Below are positions 12,135-64,000 of a stretch of DNA of 64,000 nucleotides, one piece after another. Position numbers and translations under genes: made by a program. The DNA is from Octopus vulgaris (taxonomy: Eukaryota): positions 147,808,001-147,872,000 of the forward strand of contig OX597817.1 of the NCBI GenBank assembly GCA_951406725.2, written 5' to 3'. Below the pieces are notes generated by a model, which did not search any database, was not told the DNA's origin, and saw only the letters and a list, made by a program, of their open reading frames with translations. The stretch's first letter is position 1. Each line of letters begins with the position of its first letter.

Positions 12135-12322
12135 GGCTTGACATTTTGGCACAAAGCCAGCAGTTCTGGAGGAGGAGGAGGAATCGATTACATTGATCGA
12201 AGTGCTCAACTGGTAACTTATTTTATCGACCTCGCGAGGATGAAAAGCAAAGCCGACTCCATTTGAACTCAAAAGTCAGAAGAAATACCGCTAAGATAAC
12301 GATTCTGCCAGCTCACCGCCTT
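12135..12322 (-). mobile_element. SINE family B, degenerate
   Basis: Contains CTGGTAACTTATTTTATCGAC...GGATGAAAAGCAAAGCCGAC...TTTGAACTC...GATTCTGCCAGCTCACCGCC. Confidence 0.7.
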
Positions 12323-12757
12323 AGCAACAACAGTGATAGTAATAGTTGGTTTTGTTGGTTTTGCTGTTATCTTGGTGTGGGTGAGCACAGATTCAGGGCT
12401 GATCAAATTTCTTTAAAGCGGAGTTTAGTATTTGGGACACAGTTTTACAATGTTATGAAATTCTGAGGCCGTTATGCATAAACGCTCATATGAGATTATG
12501 AAATCCAAGACCTATAACGAGTTTGATGGTATAATATGGATATTACCCGTGCCTGGTGAGGATGTAGTGCTTTATATGTGCATGGATTGTGTCTCGTTCA
12601 GTTGAAGTTAAGCTGTGTCCATGTTGACACATCTTTGGAGATTTCTATACATGTAATCAGTACAAAACTGGAGCTTGGGACAGAAGTTGCTTGATACTGT
12701 ATACGGAACGTTAATGGTGTATGAAGATTGTTGTGATTCATGTACGAATATTACGTT

Positions 12758-13220
12758 TGTAGTGACGCCATCTTGGAAATCTCCAGCGCGCTTGCGCAGA
12801 GTTGGATTCTTCCGGGAGGCCTGCCGGAAGTTCCCACATGCGCATGCGCAGAAAATTAGCAGCAGCGAAATTCACTCGTATCATTCTCTCGAACGCCGGC
12901 AGCTGAACAAGACAGTCGTGTTTTTATCAGCTCTCTCAAGCTGCTACCTTGTGGTGTATCTCCGCTATGCTTGAACGGACAGGATTTGGCTCACTCCACT
13001 TGACTACTGCGATAAGCTCCTAGGCTGCCAATTCGCCCAGAAAGAAGAAATAAATATTTATTCTGTTGAAGTTGATCGGAAGTCTTGACTCTTTCCTTCG
13101 ATTAATATTCAATGTAAAGGATGCGAGCTGCACGTTTCCAGTGCGGGGACCTCTCATCCTGTTACAATTGGTGACCCCGACGTGATTCTAACACGCAGCC
13201 TTCTGATATGGCCTGTTACA
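12758..13220 (+). mobile_element. LTR retrotransposon remnant (probably Gypsy-type): one LTR + extended tRNA-Trp PBS + 9-bp LTR end, flanked by a CGTT duplication
   Basis: TGTAGTG(12758)...AATAAA...CCTGTTACA(13166); AT spacer; TGGTGACCCCGACGTGAT (classic tRNA-Trp PBS, 13169-13186); second CCTGTTACA at 13212-13220; CGTT at 12754-12757 and 13221-13224. Confidence 0.85.
13169..13211 (-). pseudogene. 3' half of tRNA-Trp(CCA), including the CCA end (positions 34-76)
   Basis: The reverse complement CCATATCAGAAGGCTGCGTGTTAGAATCACGTCGGGGTCACCA matches the recalled metazoan tRNA-Trp with two mismatches. The encoded CCA end indicates it was copied from mature tRNA. Confidence 0.85.
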
Positions 13221-13676
13221 CGTTGTGAGAAGACACCAAGGCACAGAAAGAAGAGCCAAAGTGATATATGGGGTATATTTGAACCACGAGTTAGTTCCGA
13301 ATTGATAGAATAAGCATTCATAAGACGCATATCAACTGACTATGAGTTGTTATTATTTGATGCAGCTTACTGTCAGGGAACATATTGTGTACTATCATGG
13401 CAGACACAATTAAATATTTTGTTCACGTCGAGGGCAACTGGTATCACTTCCCGTAAATTTTCAAAGGAGAGAAATAGCTGGTGAATAACAAAACAGAAAG
13501 GAAATCCAAAGTACATGTTGCCCCACAGAATCTCTACCGGGTTCTAATAAGAAGGAAACTGCAAAGAGATATCGTTGAAGGAGCAGTGTAAAATGCATTT
13601 TTCATCTTTGAAATACTGGAACGAATAGAAGTAACTGGTATTTGTAGTGGGCAAAGCTTTCAGGCAAATCAATATA

Positions 13677-13885
13677 CAGGGTATCCACAAAGTCTGGGTA
13701 CATGCAGTAAATAAAATCATAGCATAAACAATTAAATACAAGAAATAATAATTTCTTAAAGTATGTGTTAATCCCCATGTGGGTACATGGAGTAAATAAA
13801 ATCATAACATATATAATTAAATATAAGTAGTAATTTCTTAAAGTATGTGTTAATCCCCATGTACCCAGACTTTTCGGACACCCTG
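13677..13885. mobile_element. Tc1/mariner-type MITE with an internal tandem duplication
   Basis: TA|CAGGGTATCCACAAAGTCTGGGTACATG ... CATGTACCCAGACTTTTCGGACACCCTG|TA; the interior is two copies of an ~83-bp unit. Confidence 0.85.
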
Positions 13886-15054
13886 TACAATGGTTTCTTT
13901 GGATTATCATGGTGGAATAACGCTTTGCAGTGGGTGATAGTAAAAATTCTGCGCCAAGTAAGCAGATATCTTGTTATGACAAGCAGAGTTAGGTAATCCA
14001 AATAAACGACATGGAGTTTGGAGGGTGTAGATTTAGTTATATGGAGGGCATCTGGGGAAATATCTTGGAAGAAGACAGAGTAAATTTGTTTGGCTGTCCG
14101 TGTTCGAGGCGATAATGTTTTCAGCAGAAAATATACTGCATGTGAGTTATCACGTAGCCTAACCTTTTTGAAAACATATGTACATGACGTACAACATGAC
14201 GTAATACTGACGAAGAAAAATATATATATATATTTATCTTTTGATTTACACACAGCCTCTGACATCAGAATGTCTTCCATATATTACTTAGTATATTCAT
14301 ATCCAGTCTGACTTTACATTTATCTCATGCCTCATACATACATACATACATACATACATACATACATACATACATACATACATACATACAATTACGTTGA
14401 TATATTTAACGTTGATACTTCTGTAAAGAATCAGCAACGTTTTCTTTTATATGTGTTAGATGGAATATGTATGCATATACCAGTAAATAAATATTCATGC
14501 ATCTGTTTTGCAAGGCAAGGAGGCATTAATAAAATAAGGGCATTAAATGAATTTGTGAGAATGGGCTTGTTGTTTGGATGAATAACGTGTTAGATATCAT
14601 TGCCATTTATATGCCTTATAACGTTCCTCGTAACAAAATTATTAAACAAATATTGAATTTAATCAACTAAAGTGTAATTCGTTGTGCGGGTTAATGTTTC
14701 TAGATAACACAGTGAAAGACATTCAGGATTCAAAAACGAACTGAAAAGAAGGAAACGTCTTAAGTCGATGAAATGCATGTATTGAATATTCATGGGTAAT
14801 TGCTTTCTATATATTCATGCATGTAAGTTCGATCTTAGATGACTAACACTAACAATTGCATTGCGAAAGATATAGAAGTATAAGAGACAAGTTACGTAGC
14901 CTATACTCGTAAAGTGAATCATATAACACTTTAAAAGATTGTATTGTTGGGGACAACATGGAAGCTATTGGCTTTACGTAGTAAGGGAGATAATCATTAC
15001 AGAAATTATTTAAACTCAGTGAAGATTTAGCTCTAAATATATTTAAAAAACAAA

Positions 15055-16489: not shown

Positions 16490-16623
16490 CTTTTATTCTT
16501 TTATTTGATTCAGTCATTTGACTGCAGACATGCTGGAGCACCACCCTTAATCCAACAAATTGACCACAGGACTTATTCTTTGTAAGCTTACTATTAATTC
16601 TACTGGTCTCTTTTGCCGAACCG
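16490..16623 (-). mobile_element. SINE family A, 3' fragment
   Basis: Contains CAGTCATTTGACTGCAGACATGCTGGAGCACCACC...CTCTTTTGCCGAACCGC. Confidence 0.8.
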
Positions 16624-18217
16624 CCTCAGACATCATAGCAGCAATAAATGAGGTCAAATACTATTCTGCTGTAGGTCCTGATAGATTCCCCGCTAGTCTC
16701 CTGAAGGAATATAGACACAAACCTGCAGTCCCTCTGAACATCTTCTGGAGAAATTCTTTAGAATCAGGTTATATACCGAAACAACTCCAATCCCAGTCTA
16801 TCATCTCGGTTTCCAAACAGGGAAACAGGGAAATCTCACTCACCTACCACATCATTAAAGTGTTTGAAAGAGTGGTAAGATCAAGGATAGCTAACTTCCT
16901 GGATACCCACACACTCATAAATGCAAATAAGCATGGCTTTCGCTGGGGCAGGGATTGTTCAACACAGCCCTTACACCACATTGAAGATTTACAGGTTCGA
17001 ACTCTGATGTCATATATCTTGACTTCAGTAAAGCGTTCGACAGGGTTGACCATAATATCTTACTATCAAATTTGACAAATGTTGGAACCTGTGGAAAACT
17101 TCTAAACTAGATTAAGTATTTCCTGGCGAATAGAAAACACAAGGGGTTGTGGTCGCTGGAGTCCACTCAAGCTCAGCAAAAGTCACCTGTGGTGACCCTC
17201 AAGGACCTGTCTTGGGCCTGCTCCTCTTTATAATTACATAAATGACCTTTCCAGCGTCGTAAATCACTGTAAAGTGAAAATATTTACTGATGACACTAAG
17301 CTCTAGAAAATCATGAATTAAGAAGACCGAACTAAACTCCAGTCTGATCTATATGCTCTGAGTCAATGGGCAGACAAAAACAAAATGCAACTGAACGAGG
17401 GAAAATTTGAGCTCATGCATTTTGGAAGAAAGTCTATACTAAAACAGCCATACACTCACGGCTTCTAATATTATCAGAGACCTGGGTGTAACTGTTGATA
17501 ACAATCTCAGTTGGAGTGTCCACATAAACAATAAGGTCGATATAGCTCGTAGGTTTTTAAGAACCAGAGAACAAGGTGTCACCATTCCACTTTTCTCCTC
17601 CTTTGAACGGCCACACCTCGAATACTACTGCCCCTTGTGGTCTCCCCATACAAAACAAAACATTTCAAAGATTGAATCACCCCAGAGGGCACTCACTAAA
17701 CGAATTGAAGGCATGACTGATCTTGATTATTGGGACCGCCTTAAAGCCTTGAAACTCTACTCTCTCCAGTGCCGCCGCAAGCGGTACATCATTTGTACGA
17801 TGTGGAGAATATATACCGCCAGCATTGCCCAAACGACCTGAACATTAATTTCAAGGTTCATCCAAGGCTGGGACCACGGGCCATACATCTCCTGCCCAAT
17901 TGAGGATCACAGCATATAGGTACACTGCGACATAAATTTTTTTCCTCAACAAGCCCTGCCCTGTTTAACATTATCCCTAAAGTGATCAAAGCGGAAAGTC
18001 CAGATCACCTTTATATGGAGTCTGGACAGATTTCATCAAAGAATACCGGAGAAGCTACCCATACCTGGATACAACTCAATCAACAAGAACTCACTACTTG
18101 AATGGACCATAAACAAAACTTGACTTAAACAGGATTTAGATAATCCAATCCGGTGGTGCAATTAAGTTAGACATGGCCTGGACCAGTGTTTGGTCGAAAC
18201 ATATCTAAGCTTATCTA

Positions 18218-63276: not shown

Positions 63277-63442
63277 ATATATATACACATATACATACAT
63301 AGATATATATACATATATATAGTTATTCATTTCTATCTGTTTATTTATCTGTGTATTTATTATGTTTTCAGGATCCTCTATCGTCATATGTTGTGGTGTG
63401 TGCTATTGCTCCATTCTAGTTTTCTATTCAGGCTAGGTTTAT
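62740..63442 (-). mobile_element. Inverted PLE 3' segment (ORF end + 3' UTR + pLTR with hammerhead-like motif)
   Basis: Minus strand encodes YKPSLNRKLEWSNSTHHNI*, then a UTR, then CCA-CTGATGCG-GTCAC..GTGAC-GAAAGAACTT-TGG (62863-62906); ends at (TA)n. Confidence 0.6.
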
Positions 63443-64000
63443 AGACTACCAGTACTAGACACTGAACTCTGGCTAGAAATTGTGAAAAATAAAACCCAAA
63501 TCCTTCATTCATACTATGCAAAACCTATGGCCTCAAAATACCTGATCCACCGGAACTCAGCCATTGCGGGCAATGCCAAATTCAATATTTTGATGGCAGA
63601 CCTCGTCAGAATAATGAGAAATGTGTCACGCATGTGCGAGCCTACAGAATTAAAGAGACACATACAGTATTTCATTCACCGCATGCAGTTCTCAGGTTAC
63701 AGCCATAAAGAAAGGATCAGAGTATACAAAGGAGCCATGAAGAAATTTGATAATATATTATGTAATGATAGGAATGGGATTTGCCCAATCTATAGGAACA
63801 AGTCATGGAACACTATAGAAAGGACAAAAAAGAAAATAGGGAAGGCCAACTCTTGGTATGATAGCCATAAATACCAGAGTGTCATGTTCGTTGACACCAC
63901 CCCTGGAGGTGAACTGGCGTACCGCTTTAGAAGGACCCTAGATAAACTTAAACTAAGAATTAAGGTTGTTGAAAAGCCAGGCAACCCTATCAGATCTATA
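63437..64000 (+). CDS. Penelope-like element RT C-terminus/thumb/linker, uninterrupted frame running off the window
   Basis: 188 codons without a stop: RLPVLDTELWL..YYAKPMASKYLIHRNSA..LVRIMRN..RMQFSGYS..CPIYR..WY..SVMFVDTTPGGELA..IKVVEKPG. The motif pattern is recalled for Hydra-type PLEs. It is missing from the ORF track because it has no stop in the window. Confidence 0.8.

Follow-up and report, generated by a model that had tools for sequence, protein, structure and literature searches.

Plus-strand strong-stop DNA normally ends before m1A58 of the primer tRNA (PMC13191261, PMC8599865). Minor products end at position 55, 54, or 37 or at the tRNA 5' end, and only ends at 54 to 58 are reported to transfer (PMC13191261, PMC8599865). 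The minor product P5, which ends at position 37, was described in in vitro HIV-1 assays with tRNA-Lys3 (PMC13191261), and reverse transcriptase (RT) goes beyond position 58 when m1A is missing (PMC8599865). The over-extended HIV-1 products (P1 and P3 to P5) share with the octopus element described here an LTR end, a colinear primer copy running past position 58, and an end in the anticodon loop; they are in vitro or cell culture intermediates reported to be unable to transfer and integrate (PMC13191261, PMC8599865). Unlike these products, the octopus element is chromosomal, lies between target-site duplications (TSDs) in an invertebrate, involves tRNA-Trp, and carries a regenerated 9-bp LTR end.

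Deleted proviruses arising from errors in plus-strand transfer were reportedly described by Pulsinelli and Temin in 1991. Such deleted proviruses and asymmetric-LTR HIV-1 proviruses resemble the octopus element in having an intact 5' LTR, a faulty transfer at or after the primer-binding site (PBS), loss of the internal part and 3' LTR, and normal integration (PMC9278108). Unlike such proviruses, the octopus element has lost all but the last 9 bp, contains 25 extra tRNA bases, and is germline-fixed under two organism labels.

Among Ty3/Gypsy elements, a 4-bp TSD together with a tRNA-Trp PBS is the signature of the CsRn1 lineage (PMC2582038, PMC3630058). Members of this lineage (PwRn1, AgCR, and CsRn1_Cv1) share the tRNA-Trp PBS, the 4-bp TSD, and TGT...ACA-type ends with the octopus element, and the LTRs are of similar size (381 bp in PwRn1 versus 409 bp here) (PMC2582038, PMC3630058). 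For yeast Ty1 and Ty3, the RNA, and not the copied tRNA, is the reported source of the PBS that is passed on (PMC7472051), which calls for caution in applying retroviral rules to Gypsy elements. In the octopus element, the tRNA-Trp PBS and 4-bp TSD of this single copy, which has no coding region, point to the CsRn1 lineage of Gypsy as its putative source. There is no coding part in the element and hence no CHCC Gag motif, GPY/F integrase motif, or RT to place, and no gag or pol frame was recognized by eye among the long frames of the window, by which we mean the whole 64-kb stretch of DNA that was analyzed.

Terminal-repeat retrotransposons in miniature (TRIMs) and other miniature nonautonomous LTR elements are short and noncoding, with an LTR, a PBS, and a TSD. 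The octopus element is likewise short and noncoding and has an LTR, a PBS, and a TSD. Unlike TRIMs, it has neither a second LTR nor a polypurine tract, and the parts needed for recopying are missing. Our literature search, in which older virology was thinly covered, recognized no germline fossil with the layout of an LTR, an overshot tRNA, and an LTR end.

Layout of the insertion

The insertion at 12754 to 13224 consists, in order, of CGTT, a 409-bp LTR, a 2-nt spacer, a 43-nt stretch that is antisense to the 3' half of a tRNA, a 9-bp repeat of the LTR end, and a second CGTT. This is the layout that the first-pass annotation of the sequence had described, and all of its coordinates are exact. 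The features are as follows.

12754..12757, + strand: left target-site duplication, CGTT (read from the sequence)
12758..13166, + strand: LTR of a high-copy family, 409 bp, with TGT...ACA ends (TGTA...TACA) (sequence and contig depth)
13167..13168, + strand: 2-nt spacer (AT) from the LTR end to the PBS (sequence)
13169..13186, + strand: 18-nt primer-binding site, antisense to tRNA positions 76 to 59 (subthreshold RSV_PBS match with 18 contiguous identities)
13187..13211, + strand: 25-nt extension antisense to tRNA positions 58 to 34 (Rfam for the T-arm and position 56; assumed tRNA-Trp reference for position 37)
13212..13220, + strand: repeat of the LTR's final 9 bp (CCTGTTACA), with a CA end (sequence)
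13221..13224, + strand: right target-site duplication, CGTT (read from the sequence)

The 3' terminus of the LTR is CCTGTTACA, and the same 9-mer recurs at 13212 to 13220; these are its only two occurrences on either strand of the 64 kb. The chance that this 9-mer and the 4-mer would both fall at fixed places is ∼1e-8. An alternative reading of the CGTT flanking repeat is ACGTT, 5 bp long, which would overlap the terminal A. The second terminal repeat is only 9 bp long, and the element therefore does not have two full terminal repeats. Further, there is no polypurine tract before the 3' repeat, which is directly abutted by the tRNA copy. Inspection of the sequence upstream of 12758 likewise found no purine tract, on which ground we rejected the reading of the LTR as a leftover 3' LTR.

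The LTR segment has a G+C content of 48%, with CpG not depleted, compared with 38 to 39% in the flanks, and contains an AATAAA at 13049. Near its 5' end lies an imperfect inverted repeat of 62 bp (12788 to 12849), and the segment from 12758 to 12880, taken as RNA, has a folding z of -2.66. A BLAST search of the element against the 64-kb window returned only the element itself and this internal inverted repeat, and the same layout with other TSDs does not occur elsewhere in the window.

The tRNA-derived segment

The copy of the tRNA begins with the CCA end, 2 nt past the terminal CA, is in PBS orientation, and remains colinear beyond position 58. In an Rfam scan of 81 bp, its first 18 nt matched the PBS part of the RSV_PBS model without a difference (14.5 bits; E, 1.2), and the 3' part of the tRNA model aligned on the minus strand (12.3 bits; E, 3.1). 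Both matches score under the gathering threshold, and a scan of a wider 801 bp returned nothing. The primer of RSV is tRNA-Trp. ARAGORN found no tRNA gene in the 64-kb window.

The 25-nt extension spans the T-arm, the variable loop, and the 3' part of the anticodon stem and loop. In the alignment to the tRNA model, the 5-bp T-stem is fully paired, and its two halves are split between the PBS part and the extension. This pairing identifies the extension as tRNA derived independently of any assumed tRNA-Trp sequence. When compared with an assumed tRNA-Trp with G at position 37, which we take as the reference in place of the species' own gene, the extension matches at 23 of 25 positions (chance, 2e-12). 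One of the two mismatches, opposite position 56 (13189), is a single nonconsensus T-loop base in the Rfam alignment. The other is opposite position 37 (13208, located by counting from the CCA end), where the base reads U; tRNAs carry a purine at this position. The copy can be read as ending at position 34 or, equally well, at position 38; in the latter case four additional letters come next, of which three agree with the tRNA (chance, 1 in 64). Under either end point, something happened at position 37.

The first-pass annotation had pointed out that the mismatch at position 37 falls opposite a base that is usually m1G, a known site of RT misincorporation. The mismatch is present and reads G to T, one of the identities with which m1G37 is read. 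The case is weaker than originally put, given the age of the copy: at 2.4 to 6% divergence, a 43-nt stretch is expected to carry 1.05 to 2.6 mismatches, with a probability of 0.28 to 0.74 that age alone yields two or more. The probability that one of two mismatches strikes a named site is 0.047. Moreover, the mismatch at position 56 has no explanation in terms of modification, which speaks against misreading. The presence of m1G37 in tRNA-Trp is presumed here, being carried over from what is known of vertebrates. Thus, the base opposite position 37 fits m1G misreading, and as one base in an aged copy it is suggestive only.

Two group II intron RTs read m1G37 as a mix of G, C, and T in a source whose available text does not cover tRNA-Trp (PMC11770116). 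In two others, whose available texts do not extend to cytosolic tRNA-Trp, m1G37 blocks AMV RT and is 14 to 80% stoichiometric (PMC8062790), and zebrafish m1A58 varies by isodecoder and stage (PMC11417395). Both modifications can be substoichiometric (PMC8062790, PMC11417395).

LTR family, copy age, and allele data

Among 24 listed sequencing runs, 15 hold part of 12200 to 13700, under four organism labels. Contigs of four runs (X1, X2, X4, and X9) were aligned to 12200 to 13168. The left flank is single-copy, with depths of 64, 22, and 41 in X1, X2, and X4, respectively; in X9, the left flank is without cover at 85%, which is not evidence of absence. Summed LTR depth is ∼180 to 810 times that of the single-copy flank, and the family is present in all four runs. 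Summed depth is not equal to copy number, and we describe the LTR family as large, with roughly hundreds of copies.

Depth jumps from single-copy to hundreds-fold at 12758, where other copies also start, and two pieces from X9 (organism C) cease matching at 13166 to 13167 (the orientation of the multicopy piece stopping at 13166 is ambiguous, and it was set aside as a source for the parent PBS). Together, these starts and stops support both LTR boundaries independently. The contig running from the flank into the LTR is unbroken and at single-copy depth, with 0 of 486, 3 of 486, and 13 of 485 differences in X1, X2, and X4, respectively. X4 carries a second organism label, and the left junction is thus common to both labels. 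It is important to note that the junction contigs extend 27 to 28 letters into the LTR, which is under the 31-letter bridging rule, and that X1 is possibly the assembly's own source. The three runs covering the flank contained no empty allele and no branching at the TSD, and such contigs show presence, not absence. X1 and X2, which come from different studies, hold 0.89 and 0.79, respectively, of the sampled words from 12200 to 13700. Searches with exact 22-nt LTR patterns gave no matches in metagenome contigs and none in viral contigs.

At least 10 LTR sites are private to this copy, set against more than 80% of the family depth in all four runs, and the copy is therefore at least 2.4% diverged (at least 10 private differences in 409 bp). 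With these differences and its occurrence under a second organism label, this LTR copy is old. The window letter at 12874 is missing from all aligned contigs in all four runs; the aligned contigs thus probably exclude the LTR interior of this copy, an observation that is neutral on sister copies.

At 13134 to 13136, a block of three neighboring bases lying 22 nt upstream of the 9-bp repeat departs from 85 to 100% of the family depth in all four runs. This block could be the result of one template-switch event and not of three point changes.

Origin of the element

The element is likely a dead one-off reverse transcription product of a tRNA-Trp-primed element, and this parent was probably a Gypsy element. 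We are confident of one step in particular, that RT would have overshot into the primer tRNA, past the m1A58 stop and into the anticodon loop. Read-through past position 58 had been proposed in the first-pass annotation, and the PBS geometry, the colinear T-arm, and the end in the anticodon loop, a known place for RT to stop, bear it out. The generally hypomodified tRNA invoked there does not fit as well, since the mismatch at position 37 argues for a tRNA modified at that base. The end of the copy at position 34 (or 38) lies near the P5 stop at position 37, which counts for overshoot. Judged from the copy, an intact tRNA primer and a 3' half would look alike; for HTLV-1, an 18-nt fragment primes in vitro, and full-length tRNA is reported as the primer in virions (PMC11251516).

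We give an even chance to a route in which overshoot, a jump to the end of U5, and integration all took place in a single cycle. Plus-strand strong-stop synthesis would have run through the LTR into the primer and beyond position 58 before stalling in the anticodon loop, with a modified base 37 probably misread. The over-long 3' end, unable to proceed at the PBS, would then have settled again on minus-strand DNA, at a point 9 nt within the end of U5. The landing template may have been the element's own minus strand, in which case the internal part would have looped out and dropped away, or else an abortive minus strand of short length, joined end to end. Copying of the last 9 bp, with the two terminal bases, would have given two integrase-competent ends, and integrase would have inserted the product with a 4-bp duplication. 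Once inserted, such a product would be unable to move again by itself.

Sequence at the presumed jump offers partial help. Of the six letters up to and including tRNA position 38, 5 agree with the six immediately upstream of the 9-bp landing site (chance, ∼0.05 over 7 offsets); four letters separate this match from the landing site, and the extreme 3' end of the tRNA copy has no homology. Both joined parts end in GG on their own strands, a pattern noticed post hoc. Some RTs add untemplated C's, and the GG ends would suit joining through two of them. Some points weigh against the single-cycle route. Landing in the last 9 to 11 nt of a template of several kilobases would be a coincidence, and this is better explained if the element is a solo LTR with a tRNA module (see below). 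In addition, products extended past position 54 are reported to be unable to complete transfer and integrate (PMC8599865, PMC13191261). The reported RNA origin of the PBS in yeast Ty1 and Ty3 (PMC7472051) counts against it as well.

Alternative explanations

The main rival, which we consider unlikely, takes the whole 463 bp as a solo LTR of a subfamily that carries the tRNA-half module in U5. An overshot strong-stop product would have returned to U5 by a slip of 54 nt, copied the LTR end a second time together with a normal 18-nt PBS, and then undergone normal transfer; the next cycle would have put the module in both LTRs, and LTR-LTR recombination would have left the solo copy, which requires at least two cycles. 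This sequence of events accounts for the landing just inside the LTR end, since only products that land there regain an end and a PBS, and a local slip agrees with the 5-of-6 match. Solo LTRs are, moreover, the usual end state of old families. Against this, the history needs more steps, together with priming at the second site despite the longer first site, and no sister copy is present in the 64-kb window, which was the scope of the search. The 409-bp LTR, whose end at 13166 is backed by other copies, does not itself lie directly between the TSDs, and the element would be a solo LTR only given a 463-bp subfamily.

An origin in two steps is quite unlikely in our view. In one version, an internally deleted overshoot provirus integrated and was later trimmed to 9 bp of its 3' LTR, for which asymmetric HIV-1 proviruses with deleted 3' LTRs offer a precedent (PMC9278108). 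In the other, a solo LTR already in place suffered a break 9 bp from its end, and tRNA-linked strong-stop DNA served as the template for the patch, much as Ty1 cDNA is reported to be captured at double-strand breaks (PMC7175516). The age of the copy allows for secondary events of this kind. Either version nevertheless places two rare events at one locus and requires a break or a deletion boundary that falls precisely 9 bp short of the LTR end. Overshoot into the primer is common to the single-cycle route, to the solo LTR with a module in U5, and to the two-step histories; it is absent from the three other rivals below.

If the parent family carried a 43-nt tRNA complement after its 5' LTR, the copy would be a plain internal deletion that spared only the final 9 bp of the 3' LTR. 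PBS complementarity extended to positions 54 to 55 is indeed conserved in lentiviruses (PMC13191261, PMC8599865), but such known extensions amount to 3 to 4 nt versus 25 nt here. A deletion would also have to begin at the exact end of the tRNA match and stop 9 bp inside the LTR, a double coincidence, and we regard this explanation as very unlikely.

That the right part is an assembly artifact is highly improbable. The aligned contigs reach 13168, short of the tRNA part and the right junction, which leaves room for such an error; however, the TSD matches on both sides, and X1 (maybe the assembly source) and X2 contain most of the sampled words of the region, as given above.

Retroposition by a LINE enzyme, in which a tRNA 3' half entered a solo LTR at its end and the 9-bp repeat is the TSD of that event, is scarcely credible: the element is formally a 45-bp insert between 9-bp direct repeats, but the insert has the exact position, orientation, and spacing of a PBS, derives from the tRNA typical of Gypsy elements with 4-bp TSDs, and has no poly(A) tail, only a 2-nt spacer.

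Two further candidates were rejected. The first-pass annotation had suggested a propagating nonautonomous family of ∼460 bp comprising the LTR and the tRNA half; a self-propagating element of this form is implausible, with the second R region and the polypurine tract both missing. Retroviral circle junctions can contain tRNA inserts, and a 2-LTR circle junction would be followed by the start of the LTR and not by its end.

Implications

A reverse transcription product that overshot its primer and was inserted once is probably a variant form of a known RT accident, and inert. Primer overshoot has been described as a dead end, and an inherited copy flanked by a TSD would show its rescue through a jump to the LTR end and germline fixation. 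A genome-wide set of such fossils would map in vivo RT stops and misreads on the primer and, through them, the past state of germline tRNA modification. One old copy cannot supply such a map; nothing about it suggests a function, and it is most probably an inert accident.

In a further reading, which we estimate to be unlikely, overshoot and slip-back brought the 3' half of the primer tRNA into the U5 of an LTR subfamily, which remained mobile and distributed tRNA-half modules across the genome. Were it so, this would be a natural route by which an LTR element could gain tRNA-derived sequence bearing a B box, and the base passed down opposite position 37 would preserve, in the germline, a trace of a tRNA modification. 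A strong-stop-plus-primer intermediate was once proposed for the origin of the cephalopod tRNA SINEs, and the absorption of a module into U5 comes close to that proposal.

Flanks and surrounding window

The flanks at 12365 to 12757 and 13225 to 13670 look coding-like and are without microsatellites, with the left flank single-copy in three runs. Six-frame Pfam scans of both flanks, with stops translated as X, gave no match at the cutoff in any of 12 frames. Farther to the left, 12184 to 12344 is a diverged copy of a very high-copy short repeat, with a depth thousands-fold over single copy and several copies in the window; we take it to be an octopus tRNA-type SINE. To the right, 13695 to 13862 is a two-copy tandem repeat of ∼85 bp, 90% alike, around which short inverted copies lie at 13666 to 13704 and 13858 to 13896. 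Two open frames at 16551 to 17838 look by eye like decayed LINE reverse transcriptase fragments and have no Pfam match at the cutoff. Finally, a 188-codon open frame at 63437 to 64000, likewise with no Pfam match, continues past the end of the window and presumably resembles the C-terminal region of a Penelope-type RT.
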